In this document: positions 6,092 through 62,106 of the stretch, one piece after another
How positions within the stretch are numbered: the stretch's first letter is position 1
Layout of the letters: every line of letters starts with the position of its first letter
DNA from: Bordetella parapertussis
GTDB taxonomy: Bacteria; Acidobacteriota; Terriglobia; Bryobacterales; Bryobacteraceae
DNA: 64,000 nucleotides
Assembly: GCA_943328975.2 (NCBI GenBank)
Contig: CALQCC020000014.1
Coordinates: 15,445 to 79,444, forward strand
Direction of reading: 5' to 3'
Made by a program: the position numbers and the translations under genes
The notes under the pieces: model-generated
The model's database searches: none
What the model was told of the DNA's origin: nothing
What the model saw: the letters and a program-made list of their open reading frames with translations, nothing else

Positions 6092-6100
6092 ACGGACTCC

Positions 6101-11400: not shown

Positions 11401-11575
11401 TGGTGATGTCACGCACGGCGCCCGTTCCTCGGTGCGTCGCGGTGACGGTCGCCCCTGGGGCCACAGCCTCGGTTGAATCATGAACAAGGCCCGTCAAAGT
11501 CGCAGTGGTGACCTGAGCGCTCAAAGAAAGCGCCGCGGCAAACAAGGCACACGTAACCCGTCGAATGTTTTTCAT
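8489..11575 (-). CDS. TonB-dependent outer-membrane receptor with an N-terminal carboxypeptidase-regulatory-like domain
   Basis: The ATG at 11575 gives MKNIRRVTCALFAAALSLSAQV. CarboxypepD_reg-like TGLVHDSTEAVAPGATVTATHRGTG...GEFTLPALTAGPYTIKVELSGF. Long beta-barrel ending in ...AQLAARLSF. Confidence 0.9.
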   Translation of the reverse strand: MKNIRRVTCALFAAALSLSAQVTTATLTGLVHDSTEAVAPGATVTATHRGTGAVRDITTDARGEFTLPALTAGPYTIKVELSGFKTYVNEGVDLSAGQVARLNITMEVGQVSESITVSENAPLVQTETSSQKEVLGTTEIRALPLARRNVTNLLTLSTGVTEASTGLAGGGNIRLNGVAEGGTLVTVDGTDATANNETRGLNSYGAQNQISVMSIEAVAEVQVNKGILPSEYGGSAGGQINMITRSGTNAYHGSLFENWQNDKLLARDPFLPIAQAKPAVRFNQFGGSFGGPILKNKVFFFTTYEGYRETFGLSQNGVVPTQALRDRILLALPNPETKIVMDTLPQPNEAIDANYGRFRNAKPRTRSDDTLMLKGDASVFGGNLSATFSRMRPDTVNPSIFIGPGNDQRFLNAQDRVAIQYVRAGPDWTAETRFGWNRSSLDRLNDFWMVLDPKRSGDAELTDPARRVPMFTLTGGFATPTSEVLALRGRSWSFEQKFTKIYSGHTIKTGFRWGRAAGSKTNPQNPNFTFQTINDLLTNTPNAMNLQSGQPAHDAHIDDYGAFIQDDWRVTKNLVLNLGMRFDFYPAFSFKATTSRPAEIVNLASPTNINKMDFGAPLDPHKPYNSDWGNVGPRLGFAWTADKKSDFVIRGGVGVLYTPILLALIQNNIADPLIGAATQFNRTDLASNGLKWGNYADQVQAVVRANGAGKKAIFSLIDPNLRAPYTIQTMLNVQRSLGGSWMAEAGYIRTDGQKFPLSRPLSNAFDRQTGARPNPALGAPGGVYLTSEQTMVYNALQTSIRKRFVSRLGLGFHYTYSRGYAEQGGSLASNFVNSDFFVTQDFFDPFYDRNPLSQEARSRVAMDILYQLPGPTRGLLGRVLGGWQISGILSTRTGMPLRVTQPSGITNSRPDLVGNAPILGNYRETLRYLDPTQFLRVPVSSVTTATLRPGNANPGLIRGPGSWQVNTSLGKVLSFSESVKLEIRLDAFNSFNHVNYSNPNTNITSPDFGKILTTAGPRTAQLAARLSF

Positions 11576-11694
11576 CTCCAACCCCCCTCTACGATCAAGC
11601 GAAGAACTAGAATAGTGTACTGGCACCCTCAGTGGGAGTCAACCCTTCGCTCTTCTAAAAAGGGTGTTATATACTGTCGCCGTGGAGGCCATGC

Positions 11695-45306: not shown

Positions 45307-45954
45307 TTACGCGGGCAGATAGTCAAGCAACGTCGAATAGAAAGACTTCACAAAATCAGTGGCCTGCTGCTCGGCAGCAGTCTCGTTGCGATCGATGATC
45401 GGGATGATCACGCGCACAAGTGCGGTGTCCGTGCGGTTGTAGCGAAGCGCATCCGCCATCACCCAAAACTTGGCCTTGAATTCACCGGCCACCGCCCGAT
45501 CGCGGGATTGGTACCAGTAGAGCACCAAGCTGCGACTGTCACCGTGGGCAATGATGTATCGGTTTACGGTGATAGGCTGGCCACGATTCACATCCACGGA
45601 AATTTCCCGGTCGTCCAGCGGCGTCCACCCCGACCCCGGCAAGCAATTCTTAGGGGAGTGAGGCGCCTTGCCCGTGCGCTGGGAACGAAACCCAGCCACA
45701 AACAGATTGGCTTGGGCATTATTCTTGACGTAGGTTCGGATCATGGTGTCGTCAGCCTTGAGGACATCCATGGTCTCTTTATCAACAAAACCTTCCGCGG
45801 CGAAACTCCATTGGCCCAGCGCCCGAGGCACTTCTGCCAGTGGCCGGCTGTCCGGAATGTTTTCTTCCCGGATGGAGCTATACAGGAGTCCACCCTGGAT
45901 AAGGAGCACCAAACTGGCCACGCGCACGGGCAAGGAATTCATGAACTTAAACAT
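45307..45954 (-). CDS. EpsI-family exosortase-associated protein
   Basis: N-terminal TM, ...LGQW.F..., YWYQSRDRAVAGEFKAKFWVMADAL..NRTDTALVRV is the typical EpsI pattern. 7 nt downstream of the exosortase. Confidence 0.85.
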   Translation of the reverse strand: MFKFMNSLPVRVASLVLLIQGGLLYSSIREENIPDSRPLAEVPRALGQWSFAAEGFVDKETMDVLKADDTMIRTYVKNNAQANLFVAGFRSQRTGKAPHSPKNCLPGSGWTPLDDREISVDVNRGQPITVNRYIIAHGDSRSLVLYWYQSRDRAVAGEFKAKFWVMADALRYNRTDTALVRVIIPIIDRNETAAEQQATDFVKSFYSTLLDYLPA

Positions 45955-45961
45955 AGAACCT

Positions 45962-46870
45962 CTACTCCGCTTCCGTCAGACTGGGTTGCTTCCGGATCCC
46001 ACAAACCCAATTGATGCCCCAATGGGTTAAGGCAAGGAACGCAAAGGCGATTCCAAAAATGACGAATCCTTCGGTTTCATGGAAGATGCCGGTCGCAAGA
46101 TCTGTATCAATCTCACTGAGGATGCCGGTAATCGTCACGCGGCCCGCGTTCGCGATGATCGCGATTGGAATGGTGCAAAAGAACAACGCCCACCGCATCC
46201 AGACCTTGCTATCGAAAAAGTAGGCATAGACCAAGGAAAGGAACGTCAGCATCAACAGACTGCGAATTCCGCTGCACGCCTCAGCCACAGACAACTTCTG
46301 GCTGGCCAACTCCAGAATGTTGCCGTCCCGCAACACCGGAATATTCATCAGCATAAGACAGAATTCGGCCACCTGACTGGCGAACAGCTGCAACGGAAAG
46401 GTGATTTGGTTGTAGATCACCGTTGGAATCGGGATCATGAACGGCAGCAGCAGCAGGGGGAATAGCAACGCTCGGATCACAGCGGTTCCGCCCATAATGA
46501 GCAGCAAACCGAGCAAAGCCTCCAGAAATGCAGTGCGCTGGAGGAACAATTCGGCGCCAAGCATTCCCAAGAAAGCCTGGATGCCGCTCCAAACCAGCAA
46601 GCCCAAACCCCACCAAGCCGGCTTCCAGTCCATGGCCATCAGGGCTTCGCGTCGCTGCCAAATGATGTAGCCGGAAACCAAGGGGACGAAAAAGCCGTGG
46701 CTCACGTCGTCATCGGTCATCCACTGGTCCACCAGCTTTCGCAGGATAGGGAAGTAAGCGGCAATGAGTAGCACTGCAAACCAACTTATGGCTACCCACG
46801 GAAGCGGACGAGCTTCCGCTGTAGATGCGGTTTGCTCGTGCAGTGGCTGTTGCTCAGTCAGCGCATCCAT
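45962..46870 (-). CDS. Exosortase (EpsH/Xrt family) polytopic membrane transpeptidase
   Basis: Multi-TM. Catalytic-type motifs AEACSGIRSL (Cys), IIANAGRV (Arg), IFHETEGF (His). Confidence 0.9.
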   Translation of the reverse strand: MDALTEQQPLHEQTASTAEARPLPWVAISWFAVLLIAAYFPILRKLVDQWMTDDDVSHGFFVPLVSGYIIWQRREALMAMDWKPAWWGLGLLVWSGIQAFLGMLGAELFLQRTAFLEALLGLLLIMGGTAVIRALLFPLLLLPFMIPIPTVIYNQITFPLQLFASQVAEFCLMLMNIPVLRDGNILELASQKLSVAEACSGIRSLLMLTFLSLVYAYFFDSKVWMRWALFFCTIPIAIIANAGRVTITGILSEIDTDLATGIFHETEGFVIFGIAFAFLALTHWGINWVCGIRKQPSLTEAE

Positions 46871-47473: not shown

Positions 47474-47995
47474 ATGCACACGTTAGGAACAAATCTCCCT
47501 CAAGTTGTTTTGTTCTGTGTATTTGCACTGTGGCTACCGTGGCAAAAAGGGATTTCCTTTCTGGACCCGGTCGTCCTCGGCGCTTACGCTTCGCTTGGTG
47601 TGGTCTTCGCCGCGCCGGCGGTCGCTTCGGGAATTTCTGTATTCAAGGCCGTCCGCGATGGCTTGGGCCTTAGTTGGGCCATGCTGGCGATCGGCATCGC
47701 GACCGTCTATTTCACCCGACCAGTAGTCGTTGGCCCAAATCTGGAAAGCCTCGCGGAATGCGGATTATTCGGATTGGCCCTGTCCGCAGCGGTGAGTTCC
47801 ATCGTGGCGTTCGCCGCAGCGCTCACCTCGGGCTCTATCGCCAAGATTGTGGCCCGCTTGCTGTTACTAGCGCTGTTGGCCCTGTTCTTCTTCCGGTCCG
47901 GCTGGCTACCCGATGTAGCATTAGTGGGTGCAGGGGTCTGCCTGGGAATCGCCGGGATCTTCCTGCTTCTGCTCCGCCGCCAAGCCACGCCGTGA
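47474..47995 (+). CDS. Polytopic membrane protein of unknown function
   Basis: 173 aa with about 5 hydrophobic helices. The stop overlaps the GTG of the next gene (GTGA). Confidence 0.65.
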   Translation: MHTLGTNLPQVVLFCVFALWLPWQKGISFLDPVVLGAYASLGVVFAAPAVASGISVFKAVRDGLGLSWAMLAIGIATVYFTRPVVVGPNLESLAECGLFGLALSAAVSSIVAFAAALTSGSIAKIVARLLLLALLALFFFRSGWLPDVALVGAGVCLGIAGIFLLLLRRQATP

Positions 47996-48798
47996 ACGAT
48001 AAACGACAAAACGAACCCAAGCCGACCGGCCTCGACATCCTTCTCCGTCTGGGGGGATTTGCGGTGGTGGCCTTCTTCGTTTTGATCGCTGCATCGGGAT
48101 CGATGCCGCAACTGGACACGGTGACGCGATCCACCCTCTCCGTCTTCGCCGCAGGAGTTGTGGCGAACCTGCTGCTTACTCTTAAGTTCGAGCACGGACG
48201 ATTGTCGGACGTTGGCTTGAGCTGGGAGCCCAGCGTGTTACGGAACTTGGCCAGTGGCCTGGCGCTGGGAGCGGGCTCGGTACTCCTCTTGGTGCTGGGC
48301 GCCGTACTCTCTGGCCTGGCGCAGTTTGAATCCGCTGGTATCGAAAAGTCCGCCCTGTGGATTGCCGTGCTGTTACTGGTGGGCGTATTCGGCGAAGAAC
48401 TGGTCTTCCGCGGCTACCCATTTCAATACATGGTCCGTAAATGGAATCAGCCGGTGACCGTAGTCGGGTCGAGCCTTCTATTCGGGCTCGCTCACCTCTC
48501 CAACCACAACGTCCAATTCCTGGGCGCGGCCAATACCGCGCTCTGGGGAGGCCTCCTGGGCTACGCCTACGCTCGCACGCGGAGCCTCTGGCTTCCCGCC
48601 GGACTGCACTTCGGCTGGAACATCGCGCTGGCCCTCTGCACCTCCAACATGAGCGGCATTACAATAAGGGCAACGGCGTGGAGCCTGCACTGGTCGGCCG
48701 GTGAGTTGTGGAGCGGCGGCGCATATGGACTCGAAGGCGGCCTACTAGCGACCTTCGCGGCCCTGCCCGTGTTTTTGTTCGTGCGGCGAATGAGGTGA
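47992..48798 (+). CDS. CPBP-family intramembrane glutamic endopeptidase (CAAX protease/Abi type)
   Basis: EELVFRG, FGLAHL and HFGWN motifs. The putative GTG start at 47992 is in frame. The 106-codon upstream part of the track ORF overlaps 47474..47995 off-frame and is rejected. Confidence 0.8.
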   Translation: MNDKRQNEPKPTGLDILLRLGGFAVVAFFVLIAASGSMPQLDTVTRSTLSVFAAGVVANLLLTLKFEHGRLSDVGLSWEPSVLRNLASGLALGAGSVLLLVLGAVLSGLAQFESAGIEKSALWIAVLLLVGVFGEELVFRGYPFQYMVRKWNQPVTVVGSSLLFGLAHLSNHNVQFLGAANTALWGGLLGYAYARTRSLWLPAGLHFGWNIALALCTSNMSGITIRATAWSLHWSAGELWSGGAYGLEGGLLATFAALPVFLFVRRMR

Positions 48799-50695: not shown

Positions 50696-50968
50696 TTGGG
50701 CATGAGCGACACACAGATACTTACGATCGTGCTGGCCACCGTGCCCAACATCATCGCCGTGCTGGCTGGGATATTGATCAATAACTCCCGTATGACGGAC
50801 ATGAAGGGCGACATGAACACCCGCTTCTTGGAGTTGCGGACGCACATGGATGCCCGTTTCAACGCCGTCGACCACAGGTTTGACGACATGAAGGATACTT
50901 GGCGAGCGGAGTTACACCGCGTCGAGGAAGTCCTGGATGCTCGACTAAAGCACCTCGAAGAGCGCTAG
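50696..50968 (+). CDS. Small membrane-anchored coiled-coil protein (hypothetical)
   Basis: 90 aa. N-terminal TM ILTIVLATVPNIIAVLAGILI, then heptad-like MNTRFLELRTHMDARFNAVDHRFDDMKDTWRAEL. Confidence 0.5.
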   Translation: MGMSDTQILTIVLATVPNIIAVLAGILINNSRMTDMKGDMNTRFLELRTHMDARFNAVDHRFDDMKDTWRAELHRVEEVLDARLKHLEER

Positions 50969-52299
50969 CGCTCCAGCACTGGCAGCAATAGACGAGCTTC
51001 GCAGCCTTTGCCTTCGGGGCGATTGCGCAGTTCCAGCGATCCGCCGTGGGCTTCCACTATTTGGCGGCTTAGCACCAGACCGATTCCCGACCCTCCTGGC
51101 TTCGTTGTGAAGAACGGCACGAATAAGTTCGCCGTGTTCGCAATGCCGGGGCCTTCATCTGCAACGACGATTTCCACGTGACTACCCGACTTGCGCCAAC
51201 CGACGGTCACCTTGCCCAAGGTTTCGAGCGACGCATCGGCGGCGTTCCGCAAGAGGTTGATGAGGACCTGCTCCAGCTGTACGCGGTCGCCTTGGATCAT
51301 GACCTCGGGACCGGGCTCGACAATGGACTGGATACGGCTTTCCAACACGATCGTCTGTCGAATCCAATCGCCTACGTTCATCGGCGCCAAGTGCGGGGGC
51401 GGCAGCTTCGCGAGCAACGTGTAGGCTTCCAGAAAACGGCTGAGCCCACTACTACGCGAAGCGATGATAGAGAGACCACGGCGAGTGTCGTCGCGCCAGT
51501 CTTCGGGCAACGGATCTTTCGCCACCAATGTTTCCAGACTCCCGGCAATGGACTTGATCGGTGCAAGCGAGTTATTGAACTCGTGTCCGAGCACTCGAAC
51601 CAAACCTTGCCACGCTTTCAATTCTTCTTCTCGCAGCGCACGAGTGAGGTCGCTGACGACTATGAGTTGGTGCGGCAATCCGCCTTCGCGGAACGGCGTT
51701 CGCGTGATGGACCAGCGGCCCGCGCCGATCGCGAAGGTGCGCTGCACTGTCCGGGTCGTCTCTCCTTCAAGATACTCTCCGAGTCCAAGCGACGAGGCAT
51801 CTGCCGCCATCATGCGCTCCACTGGTTGACCGAGCAGCCGTTCGCCGGCGCGATTCACCAAGCGGAGACGATGCGTTTCATCGAAGGCGAAGATGGCGAC
51901 GTCAATCTCTTCCATCACCTTCCGCAAGAGCGTGGTCGCTTCCATCGCTCCCAGGCGTTGCTCGCGCAAGGTTGTGCCCATTGCGTTCACCTGCTGCATC
52001 ACGTCACCGAGCGCATCTTCGCCATCTTCGTGCGCGCCGCGAATCGAATAGTCGCCTTCGCGCATGGCTTCCAGCAGGTTCGCTAACGTTCGCAGCGGCG
52101 AGGCGACACGTTGCTGGATGACTGCGGCACAGAACCACCACACGCCCACGATGACCAAGGTGAGCGTCCAACGCAGGCTCTCGCCCACGCTTGCTGCAGT
52201 CCACAGGAAATAGATCGCCACCACGACTCCGGGGAAACCAGCGGCTAGCGCCCATAGGAGCATGCGCTGCTCATGCGCGGGCTTACCGAAAAGACTCAC
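50965..52299 (-). CDS. Sensor histidine kinase (2 TM, HAMP, PAS, HisKA, HATPase_c; NtrY-like)
   Basis: H-box VLGHEFNNSLAPI, N-box LINLLRNAADA, G-boxes DEGPGI / GGSGIGL. The ATGA overlaps the regulator gene. Confidence 0.9.
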   Translation of the reverse strand: MSLFGKPAHEQRMLLWALAAGFPGVVVAIYFLWTAASVGESLRWTLTLVIVGVWWFCAAVIQQRVASPLRTLANLLEAMREGDYSIRGAHEDGEDALGDVMQQVNAMGTTLREQRLGAMEATTLLRKVMEEIDVAIFAFDETHRLRLVNRAGERLLGQPVERMMAADASSLGLGEYLEGETTRTVQRTFAIGAGRWSITRTPFREGGLPHQLIVVSDLTRALREEELKAWQGLVRVLGHEFNNSLAPIKSIAGSLETLVAKDPLPEDWRDDTRRGLSIIASRSSGLSRFLEAYTLLAKLPPPHLAPMNVGDWIRQTIVLESRIQSIVEPGPEVMIQGDRVQLEQVLINLLRNAADASLETLGKVTVGWRKSGSHVEIVVADEGPGIANTANLFVPFFTTKPGGSGIGLVLSRQIVEAHGGSLELRNRPEGKGCEARLLLPVLER

Positions 52300-53654
52300 A
52301 GCCCGTAGCGCTGCAAGCGCCGGTAGAGCGCACTGCGGCTCAAGCCGAGCGCACTGGCCGCGTGGCTGACGTTGCCGTTATGTTTGGACAACGCCTTCTT
52401 GATAAGGAAGACTTCAACGTCTTCGAGGCTCATGTCGTCGAGTCGGGCGGTGCCGGACCCGGAAGCTCGCAACGCCAGATCTTGGGGACGGATCAGCGAC
52501 TCCTGCGCCATCAACACGGCGCGTTCGACAACGTGATTCAGTTCGCGCACGTTGCCTTGCCAGGGATGATCCAGCAGGGCTTGCATGGCCGCTTGATCGA
52601 AACCCTGCAGCTGTTTTCGATAGCGCCGCGCGTGCGTTTTTAGAAAGTATGCGGCCAAGGCGCCGATGTCCGCACGGCGTTCGCGTAAAGGCGGCAGATG
52701 AATCTCGATAGTGTTCAGCCGAAACAGCAGGTCGTCGCGAAACCGACCGGCCGCGACCTCTTCAGGAAGATTCGCATTGCTAGCGGAAATCACGCGCGCG
52801 TCGACCTTCTTGGTCTTTGAGGATCCAACGCGCTCCATCTCGCCGATTTCCAGGACGCGCAGCAGCTTCGCCTGCAGATTCAGCGGGACGTTCGCGATCT
52901 CATCTAGGAACAGCGTGCCGCCATCCGCAAGTTCGAAGCGTCCGACGCGATCCGCCTTCGCATCGGTGAAGGCGCCACGCACGTGCCCGAACAACTCGCT
53001 CTCAAACACACCTTCCGCGAGCCCGCCCGCGTTCACTGTGACCATCGGGCGACCCGAACGGCGCGACACCGCGTGCAATGTGCGCGCGACCACTTCTTTG
53101 CCCGAGCCCGGCTCGCCGGTGATCAAAACGTTTGCATCCGACGGACCCACGCGAGAGATCAACTCCAGCACCGGCTGCATCGCGGCCGATTCCGCAATCA
53201 AGGTCGGTCCACCGTCGGACCGCAGCAGCCGGTTCTCTGCTTCCAGTCGCTGACTGCGTTTCAGTGCCGTGCTCAGCTCCACCTGCGTTCGCAGGATGCT
53301 CAGCAGCCGAGCATTCTCCCACGGCTTCTGCACGAAGTCGCGAGCCCCGCGCCGCATGGCTTCGACCGCGAGTTCCACCGTGCTCCACGCCGTCATCACG
53401 ACGACGGCAAGGGTAGGATCGATGGCCTGAATCCGCGCGAGCAAGTCGAGTCCCTCTTGACCGCTGGTGGTGTCGCGCGTGTAGTTGAGGTCCATCAGGA
53501 CCACGTCGAAGTCGCCGGCTTCCAGCGCCGCGACCGCGCCCGCCGGAGAATTCGCGGACTCAATGCGAAAGCCCTCGCCTTTGAGTAACAGGCGCAACGC
53601 TTCCAGAACATCGCTCTGATCGTCGGTGATGAGAATGCGCCCTGCGGTATTCAA
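52296..53654 (-). CDS. Sigma54-dependent response regulator (NtrC/PilR-like: REC, AAA+, Fis HTH)
   Basis: ILITDDQSDVLEAL...VVLMDLNY, GEPGSGKEVVAR, GAFTDA, ESELFGH, C-terminal GNVSHAASALGLSRSALYRRLQRYG. Confidence 0.9.
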   Translation of the reverse strand: MNTAGRILITDDQSDVLEALRLLLKGEGFRIESANSPAGAVAALEAGDFDVVLMDLNYTRDTTSGQEGLDLLARIQAIDPTLAVVVMTAWSTVELAVEAMRRGARDFVQKPWENARLLSILRTQVELSTALKRSQRLEAENRLLRSDGGPTLIAESAAMQPVLELISRVGPSDANVLITGEPGSGKEVVARTLHAVSRRSGRPMVTVNAGGLAEGVFESELFGHVRGAFTDAKADRVGRFELADGGTLFLDEIANVPLNLQAKLLRVLEIGEMERVGSSKTKKVDARVISASNANLPEEVAAGRFRDDLLFRLNTIEIHLPPLRERRADIGALAAYFLKTHARRYRKQLQGFDQAAMQALLDHPWQGNVRELNHVVERAVLMAQESLIRPQDLALRASGSGTARLDDMSLEDVEVFLIKKALSKHNGNVSHAASALGLSRSALYRRLQRYGL

Positions 53655-53678: not shown

Positions 53679-55061
53679 CTAACGTCCTCGACCCGCTCCG
53701 CCTGGACCAACAGGGACTGCGATGGCTCCCGCGCCTCCGCCCGGACGTCCACCACCGGGAGCGCCGGTGGCGCCGCCGCCGAAGCCTCCACCCGTGCCGA
53801 AGCCGGTTCCGAAGCCGGTGGTGCCGCCAGGGCCGGTTGCACCGCCTTGGCCACCGGGACCAGTCGCGCCACCGCCACGTCCGCCGTTGGCACCGGGCAC
53901 TCCACCGGCTCCGCCCGCGCCGCCAACTCCACCGCCGGCACCTGCGGCAGGAGTGAAGACAAACTCCCACTCCTCATACTTGGAGCGTTCCTTATACACC
54001 TTGATGCTGGGACCCGTGTGGGTGCTGGCGACACCGGCAATACCTCCGCCGCCGACCGCGTTGTTCTGCGGCACGCCGACACCCGCAGGCGCCGCACGCG
54101 GCGTGGTCAGCAAGCGATTGATTACGTCGATGCCAGCGTTCGCAGCGCCGCCGGGAAGTCCGGGGGTAGTGTTAGGGTTGGCACCGGGCAGGCCGCCCGG
54201 TAAGGGAGCCGCACCTCCGATGGGCAACGGAACAAGTTGTCCGTTGGGACCGATCTGAAATCCAGGCGGCGCGTTTGCCTGGGCGCCTGCGTTCGCCTGT
54301 TGACCCGGCAATTGTTGACCGGGAAATTGTTGCCCAGGAAATTGCGGCTGGAATCCGCCTTGCGTCGGTTGTGTGCCTGGAGTCGGTTGTTGTCCCGGAA
54401 ACTGTTGACCGGGAAATTGCTGTCCAGGGAATTGCGGTTGACCGTTGGTCTGTAGGTTGCCTGGAAGTTGCACGCCAGCAGGGAGCGCGCCGGGAATGCC
54501 GAAGCCTTGCTGGCCTTGTCCTACAACACCCGGAAGATTCGGAAACTGAGGATTGTTCTGCGGCGCTGGACCGGAAAAACTCTGCGCTCCGGGTAACGTC
54601 ACGTCGCTAGGCCGGGCGAGCACCGCGGCGTTTACTTGTTGCTCTTGCGACTGCTGCGAGTTCGAGGTGCTGCTCGGTGTCGAACCTACGGTGGGAGGCT
54701 TCGTTACCAAAGAATCGGTCAACTGCGCCCCGTTCGTGTGGATCAGCCGCCATTCGGTCTTGCCAGTGTACGGATCGGCATAACGTCGGCGCAAATAGCG
54801 CTTGTTGTTGTGCTTTTCGAGGTCGTCCAGGCTCTGCGGCCACTGCCCCGCGTTGTCGAGTTGGTAGAGCTGGATGGCCCGAATGAACTGCTCGCCGCGA
54901 TCGATGAGGACTTGCTCTTTTTCGCGTTCGCTCTCAAACGCGACGCGCGGAAGCTGCGCGTACATCATCAGCGCGATCGCACCCGCCATCATGAAGATGA
55001 TTAGCAGGATGAACCCGCCTTGGGTTTGCTTGCGCCGGGCTGAGGCTGGGCGGCACTTCAT
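53679..55061 (-). CDS. Pseudopilin-like (GspG-fold-like) protein with a long Gln/Pro/Gly-rich repeat region and a Gly-rich tail
   Basis: The N-terminus RRKQTQGG-FILLIIFMMAGAIALMMY is a prepilin-like helix without Glu at +5. GspG-like DRGEQFIRAIQLYQLDNAGQWPQSLDDL...YADPYTGKTEW. Then QQFPG repeats and a GGAGGAGG...GFGTGFGTGGGFGGG tail. Confidence 0.65.
   Translation of the reverse strand: MKCRPASARRKQTQGGFILLIIFMMAGAIALMMYAQLPRVAFESEREKEQVLIDRGEQFIRAIQLYQLDNAGQWPQSLDDLEKHNNKRYLRRRYADPYTGKTEWRLIHTNGAQLTDSLVTKPPTVGSTPSSTSNSQQSQEQQVNAAVLARPSDVTLPGAQSFSGPAPQNNPQFPNLPGVVGQGQQGFGIPGALPAGVQLPGNLQTNGQPQFPGQQFPGQQFPGQQPTPGTQPTQGGFQPQFPGQQFPGQQLPGQQANAGAQANAPPGFQIGPNGQLVPLPIGGAAPLPGGLPGANPNTTPGLPGGAANAGIDVINRLLTTPRAAPAGVGVPQNNAVGGGGIAGVASTHTGPSIKVYKERSKYEEWEFVFTPAAGAGGGVGGAGGAGGVPGANGGRGGGATGPGGQGGATGPGGTTGFGTGFGTGGGFGGGATGAPGGGRPGGGAGAIAVPVGPGGAGRGR
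54297..54440 (-). repeat. Two clusters of 15-nt in-frame tandem repeats (encoding QQFPG-type pentapeptides)
   Basis: The + strand reads ctgttgacccggcaa / ttgttgaccgggaaa / ttgttgcccaggaaa / ttgcggctggaat, and again ttgttgtcccggaaa / ctgttgaccgggaaa / ttgctgtccagggaa / ttgcggttgacc. Confidence 0.8.
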
Positions 55062-55063
55062 GG

Positions 55064-55780
55064 TTAAGGGTCCTGACGATCAATGATGCGCAGGGTTTGC
55101 GTATTCTTGGAAACGGTGTCTTCCACTTCGGCCGAGGTTGTACCGATGCGCACGATGCGGTATCGATTGCGGATGGTGTCGTTTTCACCCACGACGAAGT
55201 TGTCCTCGCCGTCGACAAAGAGGGCTCGTAACCGTCCGCCGCCGCGCGTTGTGCCTTCGTAGCCGAAATACTTGAGCGGAATCGGCGGGGGCGGAGGCTT
55301 CACCGGCGCTGCGAGCGGTGCTTGCTTGGCCGCATCGGCAAACGGGTCGACCTTCGGAGCAGTCGGCTTGATGGGGTCCACTTTCGGCGGAGGCGGCGGA
55401 GGTGGAGTGAAGAACTCAAACAAACTGCGCGAGCCGCCAACGTCGCCGACCTCGCGAACGCGCGCGAGCAAGTCGGTGCGTAACGTGGGGTCTACTTTGC
55501 TGAGATCGAAATCGTCGGGCAGCTTGAGCGAAGGGCGGAAATCATCGGTGCCTCCACGCGCCGCTCGTGTGGCACGCGAAGCAGGACGAGCAACCGGCGC
55601 AGGCTGCACGATTGGCAGACTCACACGCGGGGTGGTCGTGTTCGAACTAGAAGGCGGCGTGACTGGCGTGTCGGAACTATTGCCGTACCAATACGCGGGG
55701 ATGGCCGCCAGCAGGAGCCCGATCAACAGCATCATCTTCTTCGGCTCTGCACCCAGGCCGGTCGGCATCCACTTACTCAT
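55064..55780 (-). CDS. PilP-like pilus/secretion assembly protein (N-terminal TM, Pro-rich linker, C-terminal beta domain)
   Basis: MMLLIGLLLAAIPAYWY anchor, PPPPPPPK linker, C-terminal LKYFGYEG...ALFVDGEDNFVVGENDTIRNRYRIVRIGTTSAEVED, which is PilP/GspC-like. It sits after pilO. Confidence 0.55.
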   Translation of the reverse strand: MSKWMPTGLGAEPKKMMLLIGLLLAAIPAYWYGNSSDTPVTPPSSSNTTTPRVSLPIVQPAPVARPASRATRAARGGTDDFRPSLKLPDDFDLSKVDPTLRTDLLARVREVGDVGGSRSLFEFFTPPPPPPPKVDPIKPTAPKVDPFADAAKQAPLAAPVKPPPPPIPLKYFGYEGTTRGGGRLRALFVDGEDNFVVGENDTIRNRYRIVRIGTTSAEVEDTVSKNTQTLRIIDRQDP

Positions 55781-56397
55781 TGCTTGGCCTCCTGTGAGGC
55801 GACTTGCAGGGGCGCGTCTTCGCGGATGAACGCTTCCATTTTGATCGCGACGGTCAAAATGCTGGTGCCCTGCTGCGGAGTGGCATTCAACGATTCGATG
55901 ATGAGCAAGCTGGAGGAACGATCAATCTCACGCACGAAGCTGAGCAGGTTGCGATAGGTGCCTTCGAAGTTCGCGGTGATGGTCACCATGCCCAACGTTT
56001 CAGAGCCGTCGATCAAGTCGATGGAAAACGCGTTGCCGCGATCTTTGATGCCGGCGCGCTGCGCGATTTGGTTCAGCTCCGTGAGCATCGTCGAGGGAAC
56101 GGTGCGGCGCGTGACGAAATACTTACTCAGAAATTCATCCGCGGCCCCGCGGCCCTTTTCAACGGCGGTGGCGTGCTGCTTCGTTTCGTCCAGCCGAGTC
56201 TTCGCTTGGCGAACCTGCGATTGCAGGCGGACCAAGTCCTCTTCCAGCGCTTCCGCCGAACCGCCGGGAGGATACAGCACCAACGCCGCCGCAGCCAAAT
56301 TCAAGACTACAAGTACTCCCAGCACGATGCGCGCGATCTGCGCCTTGCCTGGACCCTTCGCTGCCGCGCTGGCCTTGAGTTTAGAATTTTTGGCCAT
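55777..56397 (-). CDS. pilO: Type IV pilus biogenesis protein PilO-like
   Basis: Single TM (IARIVLGVLVVLNLAAAALVL), a coiled coil, then ...MVTITANFEGTYRNLLSFVREIDRSSSLLIIESLN, a PilO-like ferredoxin-fold segment. Confidence 0.75.
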   Translation of the reverse strand: MAKNSKLKASAAAKGPGKAQIARIVLGVLVVLNLAAAALVLYPPGGSAEALEEDLVRLQSQVRQAKTRLDETKQHATAVEKGRGAADEFLSKYFVTRRTVPSTMLTELNQIAQRAGIKDRGNAFSIDLIDGSETLGMVTITANFEGTYRNLLSFVREIDRSSSLLIIESLNATPQQGTSILTVAIKMEAFIREDAPLQVASQEAKQ

Positions 56398-56950
56398 AGC
56401 TCACAGTCAACCGGTAGCGATACAGGGGTTCGTTTTGCGAAGGTGGATCGGCGCGCAGCAGCGTCGCCGGTCCGAACAGCGGCGAGTTCTGCAAACGCGT
56501 GGTGAATTCGATGGCTTGCGCGGGCTGTTGTGCGCCCACTTCCATGTCGAGCGTAACTTCGTTGCGGGAGTTGACCTGCGGCAAGCGGACTTGAATCAAA
56601 CGCACGTTGCCGGGCAGGACGCCTTCGATGTCCGCGAACAACCGAGCCCAACTAATGGACTTACGTTCGACCAACGCGTTGAGCAGCACGCTCTGTTGCA
56701 GCACTTCGGCATTCACGGGCTGACGCAGCGTGGTGTCGACTTTAGCTTGCTCCACGGCCGTGGCGCTCACTTGCGTTTGCAGTGCGCTGACCGCGTCGCG
56801 ATTTTCCGCGGCCCGCGCGCGTTCCCCCAGGATCAAGTACGCCTGCACGCCGAGCAACCCCACCAACAAAATGGAGCAGACGGTCGAAACAACCACCGCC
56901 GCACGATCATGACGAAACGGCTCAGTGGATAGATTGATAGGGACGCGCAT
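56381..56950 (-). CDS. pilN: Type IV pilus biogenesis protein PilN-like
   Basis: MRVPINLSTEPFRHDR... is the PilN INL motif that binds PilM. Single TM and a coiled coil. Confidence 0.8.
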   Translation of the reverse strand: MRVPINLSTEPFRHDRAAVVVSTVCSILLVGLLGVQAYLILGERARAAENRDAVSALQTQVSATAVEQAKVDTTLRQPVNAEVLQQSVLLNALVERKSISWARLFADIEGVLPGNVRLIQVRLPQVNSRNEVTLDMEVGAQQPAQAIEFTTRLQNSPLFGPATLLRADPPSQNEPLYRYRLTVSYGQKF

Positions 56951-57822
56951 TATCGCACCGCCTCCAGGTATCCGAGTAGTCCCGCGTTATATCCATTCAC
57001 CGGACCCAAGCGGCTGCGCAATGTTTCCGTGGGCACCGAGATACCTTCCGGCGCGCGCCCGAAGCCGCACAGGATCAACTTACTGACGGGTTGCGACAAC
57101 TCGTCTTCGACATAGGCGAAGGTCGGATGCAACACGCCGAGCAGTTCCTCGTCGTTCACTTCTTCGAGAGGCAGGCAGCGGAACAGTTTCAATTTTCCGT
57201 CGGCCAGCGCCATCACGGTAACGACGTTGCCCGCTAATTTTGCGATGACCACCACTCCGGGCTCGCGATACAGTTCCAGCGCGGCCAGAGACGAAGGCGT
57301 TACGTCGCCAGGATGAAACCCGACACTGCGGAACAAAGCTTCGTAGCGAGCCAGAACTTCAAACGCCACGGTGACGGCGACCACGTCGGCTTTCTTCTTG
57401 CCGCCGGTGCCAGGCTGAATCCAGTAACTGACAGCCGCGGATTCGATGTCAAACGGAACGGTTTTCTTCACGCGGAATCGGACCAGCGCGAGTTGTTCTT
57501 CAGGCGAACTGGGGAAAGAATCGAAGTCGAGCAGGCTGACGCGCACGCAGTGGTCGGGCAGAATCACCGCTGCAGGACGACGCTTCTTGCCACCGCCACC
57601 CGGCGCGATGCGTTGAATGGTTTGCGACGCCACGTCCGCCGAAAGCAGATTGTCTTCGATCGGCGAAGGCACCAGCGTTCCCGCCGGAAACTCCGCGAAC
57701 CCTGCCTGCCCGTTGGCCGAATAGGCCACGCCCGCCTCCGACAGCTCGAAGATGTGGCTGGGCGCTGGGTCTTGCGCGAACCGCGTGATTTGTTTCCACA
57801 GGGACATATTAGGAGGCCTCAA
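56950..57822 (-). CDS. pilM: PilM/GspL-like cytoplasmic actin-fold assembly protein (short form)
   Basis: 290 aa, placed between the ATPase and pilN. AAVILPDHCVRVSLLDFDSFPSS.EEQLALVRFRVKKTVPF is PilM-like. The start may be the Met at 57807. Confidence 0.6.
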   Translation of the reverse strand: MRPPNMSLWKQITRFAQDPAPSHIFELSEAGVAYSANGQAGFAEFPAGTLVPSPIEDNLLSADVASQTIQRIAPGGGGKKRRPAAVILPDHCVRVSLLDFDSFPSSPEEQLALVRFRVKKTVPFDIESAAVSYWIQPGTGGKKKADVVAVTVAFEVLARYEALFRSVGFHPGDVTPSSLAALELYREPGVVVIAKLAGNVVTVMALADGKLKLFRCLPLEEVNDEELLGVLHPTFAYVEDELSQPVSKLILCGFGRAPEGISVPTETLRSRLGPVNGYNAGLLGYLEAVR

Positions 57823-59446
57823 TAAAGGTGACCTTATTGATCTCCTTCAATGTCGTTTCACCCTCGCGGGCTTTTTCGAGCGCCGATTCGCGCAACGACG
57901 TCATGCCTTCCTCGCGCGCTTTGCGTCGGATTTCAGAGGCCGGGCGTTTGTCCAAGATGAGTTCGCGGATGGGCTCGCTCAAGTCGAGCAGTTCGGTGAT
58001 CGCGGTTCGGCCACGGAAGCCGGTACCACCGCATTCAAAACATCCCGGGCCCTCGTAAAACACCACGTCGCGCCACTTCGCTGGATCCAGACCGCTATCC
58101 TTCAACTCCATATCGGAGACCGCGATGGGCGCTTTGCAGTGCGGACAAATCTGCCGGACCAGCCGCTGCGCCAGGATGCAGTTCAGCGCGCTGACGAAAT
58201 TATAGGGCTCGACGCCCATGTTCAGGAAGCGGCCCAACACGTCGAACACGTTGTTGGCGTGGACGGTGGTGAACACCAAGTGGCCGGTGAGCGCCGCGTT
58301 GATCGCGATCTGCGCGGTTTCCTGGTCGCGGATTTCTCCCACCATGATTTTGTCCGGATCGTGACGCAGAATCGAACGCAGTCCGCGCGCAAAAGTCAGT
58401 CCCTTTTTCTCGTTCACAGGGATCTGTGTGATGCCCTTGATCTGATACTCGACTGGATCTTCGATGGTAATGATTTTGTCTTCGTCGCTCTTGATCTCAT
58501 TCAAGCCGGCGTAGAGTGTTGTCGTTTTACCCGACCCAGTGGGGCCGGTCACCAGCACCATGCCGTACGGTTCCTTGATGTAGCGGCGGAACTTTACCAG
58601 ATCGCTGCCGGAGAAGCCCACTACGTCCAGCGACAACGTGGAAAACTTCTCGCTCATTGATTCTTTATCCAGAACACGGAGCACCGCGTCTTCGCCGAAG
58701 ACGGTGGGCATGATGGAGACGCGGAAATCGATCAGGCGGTTCTTGTAGCGGACGCGGAAACGGCCGTCTTGCGGCGTGCGGCGCTCGGCGATATCGAGCT
58801 CGCTCATGACCTTGATACGGGAGATGATCGTCGAATGCCAGTCTTTCGCGATGGGCGGCATCGCATAGTGCAGCACGCCGTCGATGCGGTACTTGATAGC
58901 GACTTCCTGATCGCGCGTTTCGATGTGGATATCGCTGGCTCGCCGTTCCAGCGCGTTGAAGATCGTGGTGTCGACCAGCTTGATCACCGGCGCGATGTCG
59001 GAATCGCTGGCGGCCAGGCGGTCGATGGAGAGCGTCTCGTCCGGATTCTCTTCGTCTCCAACTACGTCCAGCGTGAAGCCTTCAGTGACTTCTTCCAGAA
59101 CGCGCTGCGACTGCTCGGTCTTCTTGAGCAGGTCCGAAATTTGGGATAGCGTCGCGACCTTGATACGCAGTTTGCGGTTCAGCAGCCCGCTCAATTCGTC
59201 GATCAAGCTGAGGTTGCGCGGATCGGCCAGCGCGATTTCCAGGGTGCCGTTCACGCCCTGAATCGGGACGAAGTTGTAGCGGAACATCAGGTCGACCGGA
59301 ATCGACGTGAACAGATCGTGGTCGATGCGGGTTTCGCGCAGGTCGACAAACTCGTGATAGTAGCGCTTGGCCAAGGCGCGCGCCTGCTCGGTTTGTTGAG
59401 CGGCGTCGGTGAGGATGATACGGTCGCTGGCAGCCATTAGAATCAA
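57809..59446 (-). CDS. pilB: Type II secretion / type IV pilus assembly ATPase (GspE/PilB family)
   Basis: T2SSE_N-like N-terminus, Walker A GPTGSGKTTTLYA, Asp/His boxes, tetracysteine CPHCK...CFECGGTG. Confidence 0.9.
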   Translation of the reverse strand: MILMAASDRIILTDAAQQTEQARALAKRYYHEFVDLRETRIDHDLFTSIPVDLMFRYNFVPIQGVNGTLEIALADPRNLSLIDELSGLLNRKLRIKVATLSQISDLLKKTEQSQRVLEEVTEGFTLDVVGDEENPDETLSIDRLAASDSDIAPVIKLVDTTIFNALERRASDIHIETRDQEVAIKYRIDGVLHYAMPPIAKDWHSTIISRIKVMSELDIAERRTPQDGRFRVRYKNRLIDFRVSIMPTVFGEDAVLRVLDKESMSEKFSTLSLDVVGFSGSDLVKFRRYIKEPYGMVLVTGPTGSGKTTTLYAGLNEIKSDEDKIITIEDPVEYQIKGITQIPVNEKKGLTFARGLRSILRHDPDKIMVGEIRDQETAQIAINAALTGHLVFTTVHANNVFDVLGRFLNMGVEPYNFVSALNCILAQRLVRQICPHCKAPIAVSDMELKDSGLDPAKWRDVVFYEGPGCFECGGTGFRGRTAITELLDLSEPIRELILDKRPASEIRRKAREEGMTSLRESALEKAREGETTLKEINKVTFIEAS

Positions 59447-59536: not shown

Positions 59537-60745
59537 CTAGGTCCGGATCGAATCCGCGAGCGAGAAGATTGGCAAGTAGAGCGAGATCAGTACGAAGCCG
59601 ACAAAAATGGCCATGATCAGCATGATGATGGGTTCGATCAGGCTCAACAGAGCGGTGACGCGGGTGGAAACGTCGTCTTCATAAAATTCGGCGACGCTGG
59701 TGAGCATGGCGGGCAGCGCGCCGGTGGATTCCCCGACCTCGATCATATCGAGCGATAGCGATGGAAAGATCCCGGTGGTCCGCATGGAACTCGAGAGTGA
59801 CTGGCCCTCACGCACTAGTTTCACGGCCTGCTGCAGGACGTTCTTAAGCACCGGCGTCCCCAAGGATTCAGCGGAGGTGTTCAGAGCCTGCATCAGCGGA
59901 ATGCCGCCAACCAGCAGCGTCCCCAGCATGCGCGAGAACTGCGCCACCTGATATTTCAGCCACACTTCGCCGACCATGGGCAGCTTCAGCAGGAAGCGAT
60001 CGACGGTTTCGCTCCCGGCGGGGGTGCGCGCCCAGTAGCGGAATCCGACAATGCCCGCGATCAGAGCGACAAACCCTCCCAGGACGTAGCTCCGCGCCGT
60101 GGTGCCGATGGCGATCAAGAATAGCGTGGCGGCCGGCAGCTGGGCATCCAGGTTCTTGTACAGTTCCGCGAAGTTCGGGACCACGTAGGTGACCAGGAAC
60201 ACGATCAAGCCGATCACCAGGAAGATGAGCAGCGCTGGATAGATCAGGGAGACGATCAGCTTCTTGCGGACCGATAGGGCCAGTTTTTGATAGGTGATGA
60301 AGCGCTCCAACACGTCCGCGAGCGAGCCGCTGCGCTCCCCGGCCAGGACGCTGGTGACGTAGATCGCCGGGAAGACATTCTGCCGGGCAAACGCATCTGA
60401 CAGCAACGCGCCGTTCTTGACCTCTTCGCGGACGCCTTGAATGTACTTGGATAGCTTGGGGTCGGTCAGCCGGTCGGCAAGCAGGTCGAGACTCTTCATG
60501 ATCGGCAACCCGGCGCGGATCAGCGTCACGAACTGCTGGTTAAAGATGAGGAACTTCTCGAGATTGACCTTGTTGCGCTTGGGACCCAGTCCGGCCGCCA
60601 TGGCTTCGGAGCGGGGCTTGATGGAATAGACCAGGAAACCTTGGTCGGTGAGCCGGTCGCGCAGTTCGCGTTCCGAATCCGCCTCGGCCACCTGTTGGTG
60701 GACTTCCCCTCGGGCGTCGGCGTATTTAAGTGTCCATTCGGCCAT
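59537..60745 (-). CDS. pilC: Type II secretion / type IV pilus platform protein (GspF/PilC family)
   Basis: 402 aa with two T2SSF repeats (...FNQQFVTLIRAGLPI..., ...FSRMLGTLLVGGIPL...) and 3 TM segments. Confidence 0.9.
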   Translation of the reverse strand: MAEWTLKYADARGEVHQQVAEADSERELRDRLTDQGFLVYSIKPRSEAMAAGLGPKRNKVNLEKFLIFNQQFVTLIRAGLPIMKSLDLLADRLTDPKLSKYIQGVREEVKNGALLSDAFARQNVFPAIYVTSVLAGERSGSLADVLERFITYQKLALSVRKKLIVSLIYPALLIFLVIGLIVFLVTYVVPNFAELYKNLDAQLPAATLFLIAIGTTARSYVLGGFVALIAGIVGFRYWARTPAGSETVDRFLLKLPMVGEVWLKYQVAQFSRMLGTLLVGGIPLMQALNTSAESLGTPVLKNVLQQAVKLVREGQSLSSSMRTTGIFPSLSLDMIEVGESTGALPAMLTSVAEFYEDDVSTRVTALLSLIEPIIMLIMAIFVGFVLISLYLPIFSLADSIRT

Positions 60746-60831
60746 GCGTTACCTAAGATATGACGACGGGACCCGGTCGGGCGTGCAGAGCCCGTTTGAC
60801 CGGGGACCCGCTCCGCGCTTACCCTAACATA

Positions 60832-62106
60832 ATGAACCGGAACACCCGCGTGATTTTCGGGTTCCTCGTTGTGGGAGCCATGGTCGCAGTCCCGTACCTT
60901 ACGGGTGCGCTCTACATCGCTCCTCCGCCGCCTCCGCCTGCTGCCCCTACCGTTGAAGCTCCCAAACAAATCGTCCAACATCTCCCCATCGAGCAAGGCG
61001 ACACCATGGACGAAATCCTGGTCGCGGCCGGGCTCGACCCCAGCACGCGGCTGGAGATCGTGCACGCCTTCAACGAGGCCTACGATATCCGTAAAGTCCG
61101 GGCCGGCCGCGAGTTATTGCTTACGCGCTGGGAGAAGACCGGCGAGATCGCTTCGTTGGAATACACCGTCGACGCCGATCATCAAGTTCTGTTGTTCCGC
61201 ACCGATGGCGTCAGTTCGGCTGAACTCCTGGAGATTCCCGGCGTGGTCAAGGAAGTTCCGGTGTGCGCCACGCTGCAGGGTTCGCTCGCCTCAACTATGG
61301 ACCGGGCGGGAGAAGGCTTCACGCTCGCCATGATGATGGCCGACGTGTTGGCCTTCGATATCGACTTCTATCGCGACCCCCAGCCGGGTGACGACTTCTG
61401 CCTGTTGGTGGAGAAGAAATTTTACGAGAACGGTCAGCAGCCGACGTACCGGCGGATTCTGGGCGCTCGCTACAACAACGCGGGTCATGTCTCGGACGCG
61501 TTTTACTTCACCGATCCGGCCTCGACCGATGGCAAGGGCAGCTACTACGGCGGCAAGGGCGAATCGCTCAAGTCGACGTTCTTGCGGTCGCCGCTGGAGT
61601 TTGATGCTCGGGTGAGTTCTCATTTCTCGATGAGCCGCTTGCACCCGGTGCTGCACACCACCCGGGCGCACTACGGGACCGACTACGCTGCGCCCACCGG
61701 AACTCCGGTGCGATCGGTCGCGTCGGGCAAGGTTGTGGGCGCGGGGATGTCGGGTGGTTCAGGCAACATGGTTACGATCCGCCACGCCGACGGGTATCAG
61801 ACGCAGTATCTGCACCTATCGCAGATTCTGGTGCACGTGGGCCAGCAGGTAGATCAGGCTACGCGCATCGGACTGGTGGGAGCCACGGGCTTGGCCACGG
61901 GGCCGCACTTGGATATTCGCATCAGCCGCAACGGCGGCTACATGAATTGGGAAAAGATGCGCTCGCCGCGGACCGTGTCACTCACAGGGCAGTTGAAGGA
62001 ACAATTCTCTTTCGAGCGCGATCGCATGGTCGAAATGATGGATGCGGCTCTTAAGGCGATACAGGTTGCGTCGCATTCGGCGGCACCTGCGCCAGTTGGG
62101 AATTAG
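60832..62106 (+). CDS. M23-family (LytM-type) metallopeptidase
   Basis: ATG at 60832, N-terminal TM. HYGTDYAAPTGTPV, GNMVTIRHADGYQTQYLHLS, GATGLATGPHLDIR (HxxxD / HxH motifs). Confidence 0.9.
   Translation: MNRNTRVIFGFLVVGAMVAVPYLTGALYIAPPPPPPAAPTVEAPKQIVQHLPIEQGDTMDEILVAAGLDPSTRLEIVHAFNEAYDIRKVRAGRELLLTRWEKTGEIASLEYTVDADHQVLLFRTDGVSSAELLEIPGVVKEVPVCATLQGSLASTMDRAGEGFTLAMMMADVLAFDIDFYRDPQPGDDFCLLVEKKFYENGQQPTYRRILGARYNNAGHVSDAFYFTDPASTDGKGSYYGGKGESLKSTFLRSPLEFDARVSSHFSMSRLHPVLHTTRAHYGTDYAAPTGTPVRSVASGKVVGAGMSGGSGNMVTIRHADGYQTQYLHLSQILVHVGQQVDQATRIGLVGATGLATGPHLDIRISRNGGYMNWEKMRSPRTVSLTGQLKEQFSFERDRMVEMMDAALKAIQVASHSAAPAPVGN

Follow-up and report, generated by a model that had tools for sequence, protein, structure and literature searches.

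The window analyzed here is a stretch of 64,000 nucleotides from contig CALQCC020000014.1 (assembly GCA_943328975.2, positions 15,445 to 79,444 of the forward strand). Its minus strand carries an operon of the order gspF-gspE-pilM-pilN-pilO-X-target, in which X denotes a gene for a protein of 238 amino acids (aa) and the target, the subject of this study, is an open reading frame (ORF) of 460 aa at 53679..55061. The target appears to encode a pseudopilin-derived protein with a disordered extension. Its coordinates and general description agree with a first-pass annotation made from the sequence alone. The target is the last gene of the operon; its ATG start codon lies 2 nt past the TAA stop of X (55064..55780), and an AGGA motif is located approximately 11–14 nt upstream of the ATG.

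The deduced protein begins with RRKQTQGG↓FILLIIFMMAGAIALMMY (the arrow marks the putative prepilin-peptidase site), with Ile at position +5, as previously annotated. Residues 1–16 (55014..55061; this and the following features are on the minus strand) form a basic leader ending in Gly(−1) of the putative site. Residues 17–125 (54687..55013) would comprise a pilin-type alpha-1 helix with Phe+1, Ile+5 and Pro+22 and a small GspG-like head, as indicated by profile comparison with hhalign, sub-threshold NCBIfam matches and AlphaFold2 (AF2) modeling. Then follow a Ser/Thr-rich spacer with the motif VNAAVLxRPSD, delimited from alignments (residues 126–153, 54603..54686), and an uncharged low-complexity linker rich in Pro, Gln and Gly, defined by composition and by the AF2 confidence score pLDDT (residues 154–303, 54153..54602). 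A conserved C-terminal module (C-module) of about 70 aa, recognized from alignment and substitution ratios (residues ~304–372, 53946..54152), is succeeded by a variable Gly-rich tail ending in GR and assigned by composition (residues 373–460, 53682..53945).

Two arrays of 15-nt tandem repeats were located in the linker by Tandem Repeats Finder (54298..54416), one at 54298-54344 (3.1 copies) and the other at 54388-54416 (1.9 copies). They encode the QQFPG-type units reported previously, and the whole protein contains 7 Q[FLIV]PG motifs. The short ordered-looking island noted earlier, IKVYKERSKYEEWEFVF, was confirmed as well, and the tail (approximately residues 373–460) consists of 53% G, 15% A, 8% P and 8% T.

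A search of 5.8 billion proteins returned at least 334 homologues of 400–540 aa with the same layout. Except for a few carrying the JGI label 'PulG', they are unnamed, and they originate from metagenome-assembled genomes (MAGs) of Bryobacteraceae, Bryobacterales or Acidobacteriota. Among 1.84 billion cluster representatives, 919 were matched by a family profile at E ≤ 1e-30, a number that rose to 3011 when the limit was E ≤ 1e-10; as each representative stands for a cluster at 50% identity, the family comprises at least 919 such clusters. When one genome per species was scanned, relatives were found in at least 171 species, and among the matches listed (80 species) all labels were Bryobacterales, Terriglobia or Acidobacteriota, except for two that are apparently mis-binned. 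At loci L012 and L043 the typical operon was seen in MAGs assigned to Actinomycetota and Bordetella, for which mis-binning of acidobacterial contigs is the most likely cause. No description of the family was found in the literature, and the earlier statement that no equivalent had been described holds for the family and structure databases too.

A single architecture was evident in the alignments: an N-terminal domain (N-domain, residues 16–125), the Ser/Thr-rich spacer, the Pro/Gln/Gly linker, the C-module and a Gly/Pro-rich tail. All full-length homologues (400–600 aa) have the linker followed by the in-frame C-module and tail, and in all of the at least 334 homologues the C-module lies in frame beyond the low-complexity stretch. 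Shorter matches proved to be contig-end fragments or split gene calls, and the candidate that standalone copies of the C-module exist was rejected. At locus L087 (9133-10366 of a 6.3-Mb long-read contig), for example, a homologue is called as two genes of 267 aa and 121 aa, with the break falling within the linker and its repeats; the assembly probably contains a frameshift error there, and errors of this kind probably account for many of the 'short' C-module matches.

Against the nearest homologues, the synonymous rate (dS) was saturated (>1), while the reading frame was always kept. The ratio of the nonsynonymous rate (dN) to dS was 0.05–0.10 for the N-domain; for the C-module, the two nearest homologues gave 0.03–0.07, and values of up to 0.29 were obtained with more distant members. 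The tail yielded 0.26–0.69. In the linker, dN reached 0.26–0.39 against a saturated dS, and a proper dN/dS ratio cannot be computed there because of this saturation and the gap-rich alignment.

Because at least 334 homologues share one layout, and because frame and motifs are kept over saturated dS, the target is, judged by its sequence, a real, conserved and unannotated gene family rather than a chance ORF. The alternative of an ordinary short GspG with a strain-specific, neutral repeat expansion, or of an untranslated frame, had been raised in the first-pass annotation. The low-complexity DNA here does yield spurious ORFs on the opposite strand, but the alternative is contradicted by the shared linker, C-module and tail and by the saturated dS, so that its probability is close to negligible. 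One such ORF of 178 aa, rich in Pro, runs antisense to the Gly-rich tail (53722..54258, plus strand) and is a mirror artefact of GGN codons, not a gene.

N-terminal statistics were taken from 220 family members anchored on the invariant motif PRxAFE. All 220 have Gly at −1, located 22 positions before a Pro (Pro+22) that is equally invariant. Position +1 is occupied by Phe (144 members) or Tyr (76 members), followed by A-L-L, and position +5 by one of six residues (L, M, V, I, F or A, the commonest) in 217 of the 220; Glu is not among them. The leader measures 7–42 aa (median 14), and its net charge has a median of +3. The same Phe1–Pro22 register is found in PulG (PDB 5wda and 1t92; FTLLE...VVP22). 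The prepilin-like N-terminus lacking Glu5 that had been read from the single sequence is thus borne out across the family.

The proposal of a GspG-like head was supported by hhalign, in which the N-domain profile matched a GspG profile built from PDB-verified sequences with a probability of 92.8% (E 4e-7, 87 columns). The alignment pairs QGG↓F with QRG↓F, YLRRRYADPYTG with YIRRLPQDPWGS, and AIQLYQLDNxxxWPQS with ALDMYKLDNSRYPTT. The NCBIfam model TIGR01710 (GspG) matched the N-domain of the target below threshold over residues 16–99, ending at profile position 87 of 134 (E 0.014, 15.4 bits vs a cut-off of 88.85); sub-threshold matches occurred in 8 of 22 members. NF037980 (GspK) was sub-threshold in 10 of the 22, with a best E of 6e-4 (6.3e-4), and the only other recurrent NCBIfam match on the N-domain was HVO_2922, a short motif below cut-off in 11 of the 22. 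The AF2 model of the N-domain (pLDDT 65.5) predicts helices at residues 8–69 and 78–83 and strands at 92–95, 102–109 and 114–118.

From these similarities it is concluded that the target is apparently derived from a pseudopilin, with a GspK/PilX-type N-terminus lacking Glu5 and a reduced GspG-like head. The target lies outside the curated definitions of GspG, GspK and GFxxxE prepilins, and because it fails them it is filed here under none of the three. Of the prepilin N-terminal signature (PROSITE PS00409), it keeps the Gly(−1) behind a short basic leader but not Glu+5. It gave no matches to the prepilin N-terminal domain models PF07963 and TIGR02532 or to PF08334 (GspG). The N-domain found no Pfam family at E ≤ 10, and Pfam on 53 full-length members gave only noise (E ≤ 1); globular domains of GspK were missing from both searches.

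Within the spacer, N144 and D153 are invariant, and A146, V147, R150, P151 and S152 are at least 90% conserved. The linker is 161–274 aa long in the family and never shorter than 161 aa, with a composition of 22% P, 20% G, 17% Q, 1.1% D+E and 0.7% K+R. Its repeat unit depends on the clade, being QFPGQ here and LPPITLQP elsewhere, while composition and minimum length are kept.

In the full-length AF2 model (mean pLDDT 50), disorder is predicted from residue 117 onward, except for a hairpin at 268–278, a helix at 309–319 and strands at 341–346 and 366–368. The linker scores below 50 throughout, apart from the hairpin region at residues 264–279 (54225..54272, minus strand). This region holds the conserved motif PPGFQIGPNGQLVP, with predicted strands at 268–270 and 276–278 (pLDDT 75–81), and the motif recurs across the family. 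The strand blocks of the head reached pLDDT 67–71 in the full-length model vs 55–63 in the N-domain-only model, which hints that the linker hairpin may pack on the head.

The C-module has the layout INxLLTTPR (INQLLTTPR in the alignments), a spacer of fixed length, and GGIAGVAS...SIKVYK...YEEWEFVF (YxEWEF in the alignments). Residues I, L, G, A, S, I, W, E and F are invariant in the alignment, and the distance from INQLL to WEF is 48–53 aa. No relative of the island was found in Pfam at E ≤ 10, the C-module profile gave only chance matches in PDB, and a search with this profile retrieved only the target family. Chance matches in the PDB sequence searches of the N-domain and the C-module were of the kind of Forkhead, mini-Gq and S8. 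The idea that the island is the displaced C-terminal part of the GspG fold was rejected, as hhalign of the C-module against GspG detected no relation at the sequence level.

The tail varies from 26 to 108 aa in the family, with 37% G and 16% P, and often terminates in PGR, RGR or KGR. Repeats similar to those of FG nucleoporins were rejected as a family feature: in a 46-member subset the tail contains a median of 1 FG/GF motif, and the count is variable.

Synteny was determined by tblastn of the operon proteins of the window against 84 related loci, each with approximately 10 kb of flank; window and related loci (84–89) together amount to about 1.5 Mb. X and the target were each found in 82 of the 84 loci, PilO in 79, PilN in 78, PilM in 77, GspE in 75 and GspF in 55, and the operon order is the same wherever the contig allows. 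Two divergent members, L088 and L089, keep pilM-N-O-X-target, and in both the coordinates of X and the target overlap. GspF and GspE are present in L088 and not adjacent in L089 (7276-11365); since L089 keeps the unit without them, pilM-N-O-X-target is regarded as an invariant five-gene core. Past the target, the related loci carry unrelated genes (for a TonB-dependent receptor, cytidylate kinase, a phosphoesterase and a major facilitator superfamily transporter), which makes the target the terminal operon gene.

The genes upstream of X, all on the minus strand, support the earlier assignment of pilM-pilN-pilO, whose order is kept in 77–79 of the 84 loci. The PilO/GspM-like gene (55777..56397) matched NF040576 (GspM) at E 2.5e-9 and PF10741 weakly, with weak PF04350 (PilO) matches in homologues. 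The PilN-like gene (56381..56950, syntenic in 78 of 84 loci) matched PF05137 at E 0.003, below the cut-off, and a profile of 23 homologues of the PilM-like protein (56950..57822) matched Myxococcus xanthus PilM (3jc8) at E 1e-3. They are preceded by a GspE/PilB-type ATPase with an MshEN N-terminal domain (57809..59446; PF00437 1.5e-130, PF05157 5e-18, TIGR02538 and TIGR02533 below cut-off) and a GspF/PilC platform protein (59537..60745; PF00482 1.2e-57, TIGR02120 1.8e-100). Three features first noted in this one sequence are conserved across the family, namely the linker of low complexity, the island and the gene position following pilM-N-O-X.

X (55064..55780, minus strand) occupies the PilP/GspC position and appears translationally coupled to the target. 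It is a bitopic protein with an N-terminal transmembrane helix, a Pro-rich linker with poly-Pro stretches and a conserved beta-rich C-terminal domain. Pfam on 26 members of X gave chance matches only, and the PDB profile search found nothing. The label 'pilP-like' from the first-pass annotation could not be upheld beyond position and architecture; in the absence of any Cys in its sequence, X is not a PilP-type lipoprotein. By architecture it looks like bitopic GspC/PilP proteins, more so GspC, and it seems to represent an unannotated family of its own that accompanies the target.

This invariant linkage is one of the grounds for a reading in which the target is a static, periplasm-spanning connector, comparable in logic to GspC, GspB/ExeB or TonB. 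The pilin-like helix would anchor in the inner membrane beside PilN, PilO and X, with the leader cleaved or not; the Pro/Gln/Gly linker would cross the periplasm and peptidoglycan, and the C-module would dock an outer-membrane component, for instance a secretin encoded elsewhere. The linkage and translational coupling to pilM-N-O-X persist even where GspE/F lie elsewhere, and no pilin genes are found nearby. By its contour length a linker of at least 161 aa should suffice to span the periplasm, and a conserved, strand-forming C-module would suit binding by beta-augmentation. However, a mere anchor needs neither the invariant Gly(−1), Phe/Tyr+1 and Pro+22 nor a GspG-like head. Moreover, no peptidoglycan- or secretin-binding domain was detectable in Pfam and PDB searches. 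A static connector is considered the main alternative to the reading preferred below, although one on the unlikely side.

The slot of the target is the one in which the pilQ secretin would be expected, and none was found there, in agreement with the first-pass annotation. A regular expression for the secretin hallmark found no match in the window and 89 loci, and one for Glu5 prepilins found no pilin in the window and 84 loci; both motifs are crude, and these absences are suggestive only. The Secretin family was missing from the Pfam tables of six loci and from the large ORFs of the window, a prepilin peptidase gene from the scanned window ORFs and the annotated loci, and GspI/J or PilV/W partners from the vicinity of the target.

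One view is that the target substitutes for the secretin, many uncharged chains rich in Gln, Pro, Gly and aromatic residues forming a cohesive mesh, similar to that of FG nucleoporins, which would act as a gel-like plug and gate or replace the outer-membrane channel. Its position after pilM-N-O and the P-like gene is that of pilQ, no secretin lies within approximately 10 kb in any locus, and the linker is nearly free of charge and contains aromatic residues. On the other hand, features that would span the outer membrane, a beta-barrel and a secretin signature are all missing from the protein, and the FG-type motifs of the tail are not conserved. X, by its architecture, looks to be of the GspC/PilP type, whose usual partner is the N0 domain of a secretin. 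With no positive evidence in its favor, this proposal is very unlikely. A related version, likewise very unlikely, is a type IV filament machine of Bryobacterales in which the gene at the position of the secretin has given way to one for a processed pseudopilin lacking Glu5; its uncharged chain would form either a cohesive mesh of selective permeability or a flexible conduit through periplasm and outer membrane. Such a disordered-protein solution to crossing or gating the envelope would be without precedent in bacterial secretion or pilus systems.

The reading preferred here, with a probability of roughly 40%, is that the target is a processed cap or priming pseudopilin, following the logic of GspK and PilX, that presents a tethered binding module. 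The machine itself is best explained as a type IV filament system intermediate between type II secretion systems (T2SS) and type IV pili (T4P). The target would be inserted in the inner membrane, where a prepilin peptidase encoded elsewhere would cut the basic leader after the invariant Gly; Gly(−1) together with Phe/Tyr+1 points to this cleavage. The pilin alpha-1 register (Phe/Tyr+1, Pro+22) and the small GspG-like head appear to be kept, and Glu5 is absent.

By an established rationale, GspK and PilX, which also lack Glu5, act as the first subunit of a filament. By the same logic, the target could not dock beneath a preceding subunit and would serve only as the first one, as cap or primer, on the PilM-N-O-X platform. 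A flexible, uncharged tether of 160–270 aa rich in Pro, Gln and Gly would leave the head and carry the module of approximately 70 aa and the Gly/Pro-rich tail. From the tip of the filament it would project outward or, prior to extension, through the periplasm, and the module would bind a partner or a surface.

This interpretation of the target as a tip subunit is supported by the prepilin-type N-terminus, by the similarity of the N-domain to pseudopilins, by the kept operon order and by the tight coupling to X, with the short gap in the window and the overlap in L088 and L089. It also agrees with the constraint on the extension: linker length and composition are kept, dN/dS of the C-module is low, and the module is confined to the family.

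Several observations weigh against it. Curated Pfam and NCBIfam models at their cut-offs do not recognize the whole target, and PDB sequence searches with the N-domain, as single sequence and as profile, produced chance matches only. Foldseek against PDB gave no match at E < 1 for the AF2 model of the N-domain and nothing significant for the full-length model. When the hydrophobic helix was removed, the globular part retained the same hhalign alignment to GspG with a P value of 6e-4, but at a probability of only 29%. No peptidase, Glu5 pilin or secretin gene was found within approximately 10 kb in the window and the 84–89 loci, so that a filament to be capped is not demonstrated. Known tip pseudopilins work with partners of the GspI/J type, none of which was seen nearby here. 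Finally, the invariant linkage is to pilM-N-O-X and not to pilin genes, which is no less compatible with a static component of the platform.

Type IV filament machines, including the T2SS, T4P and competence pili, are among the best-studied nanomachines of the cell envelope, and their repertoire of subunits is thought to be largely catalogued. The family described here is large and unannotated, belongs to abundant soil and peat Acidobacteria, and obligatorily closes a pilM-N-O operon. In it, a pilin-type N-terminus lacking Glu5 is joined to a conserved tether of about 200 residues, predicted to be disordered, and to a small module of a new kind. As a cap subunit, the target would provide the first example of a pilus tip with a long disordered tether at its core; as a static connector, it would link the platform of the inner membrane with the outer envelope in a new way. 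In both cases, it gives a point of entry to the study of surface attachment or secretion in a soil phylum that is dominant and poorly understood, and its N-domain and C-module are two domains that deserve family models.

Downstream of the target, Pfam identified a sigma-54 activator response regulator (52296-53654, minus strand) and a HAMP/PAS histidine kinase (50965-52299, minus strand), present in 29 and 27 of the 84 loci, respectively. The regulator pair is accessory and not part of the core. A scan for sigma-54 promoters gave fewer matches than expected by chance and none 5' of the operon. An M23 peptidase with a Csd3_N2 domain (60760-62106, plus strand) is encoded divergently from the operon; among the 84 loci it occurs only in L004, as an identical protein, and is accordingly not considered part of the system.

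Elsewhere in the window, the Pfam table of the identical locus L004 lists an exosortase EpsH (302 aa), EpsI (215 aa) and an Rce1/CPBP-like protease at 45307-46870 (minus strand) and 47992-48798 (plus strand), 7–8 kb from the operon. The exosortase genes suggest PEP-CTERM protein sorting in the source organism. A PEP-CTERM signal is absent from the target itself. At 4751-8452 (minus strand), a DUF1552 protein lies beside a 783-aa protein with DUF1592, DUF1588, DUF1587, DUF1585, DUF1595 and cytochrome c domains; together they are the PSD/PSCyt pair first described in Planctomycetes. An outer-membrane barrel of the CarboxypepD_reg TonB-dependent type (8489-11626) adjoins this pair.

Among known systems, GspG/PulG (TIGR01710, PF08334) resembles the target in its basic leader ending in Gly, Phe+1 and Pro+22, and in an alpha-1 helix followed by a loop of the type ...LDMYKLDN.xYP... 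and a strand region Y(I/L)RR..DP(W/Y)G. In both cases the gene is accompanied by those for GspE, GspF and a GspM-like protein. In contrast to GspG, the target has a hydrophobic residue instead of Glu at +5 and shows no match to the C-terminal part of GspG; at 460 aa vs approximately 140 aa it carries about 340 extra residues, and it scores 15 bits against the cut-off of 88.85. With GspK of the T2SS and PilX/PilK of type IVa pili, the target shares the N-terminal motif (E/Q)(R/G)G↓(F/Y)ALL without Glu5 and, if the GspK rationale applies, the expected role of first subunit only. However, it lacks the alpha-domain of GspK and appears to have a small GspG-like head instead, and it did not match the GspK (PF03934/PF21687) and PilX_N (PF14341) models, which we take to be the relevant Pfam families.

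Minor pilins of modular build, among them CofB/TcpB of type IVb pili and PilB/PilC of Streptococcus sanguinis, have a pilin module joined by a linker to a further functional module at the C terminus, which the filament displays. The target shows a similar succession of pilin module, linker and C-terminal module, a likeness of architecture. Its appendage differs in being mostly disordered low-complexity sequence with a new module of approximately 70 aa, and in the lack of a folded lectin- or vWA-type domain.

In the bitopic connectors GspC, GspB/ExeB and TonB, which span the periplasm, a membrane anchor at the N terminus is followed by a long spacer rich in Pro and by a small domain for interaction at the C terminus. 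The anchor of the target, unlike theirs, is a prepilin-type segment with a putative pseudopilin head, and no HR, PDZ or TonB_C domain was detected in it. With the PilQ/GspD secretin (PF00263), the likeness is confined to gene position, after pilM-pilN-pilO and the gene in the PilP/GspC position; the target has no match to secretin, N0 or AMIN domains, does not contain the hallmark motif, and is predicted by AF2 to be largely disordered. The target differs from all these known kinds in its long, conserved disordered tether, its new C-module and its fixed pilQ position in a pilMNO operon.

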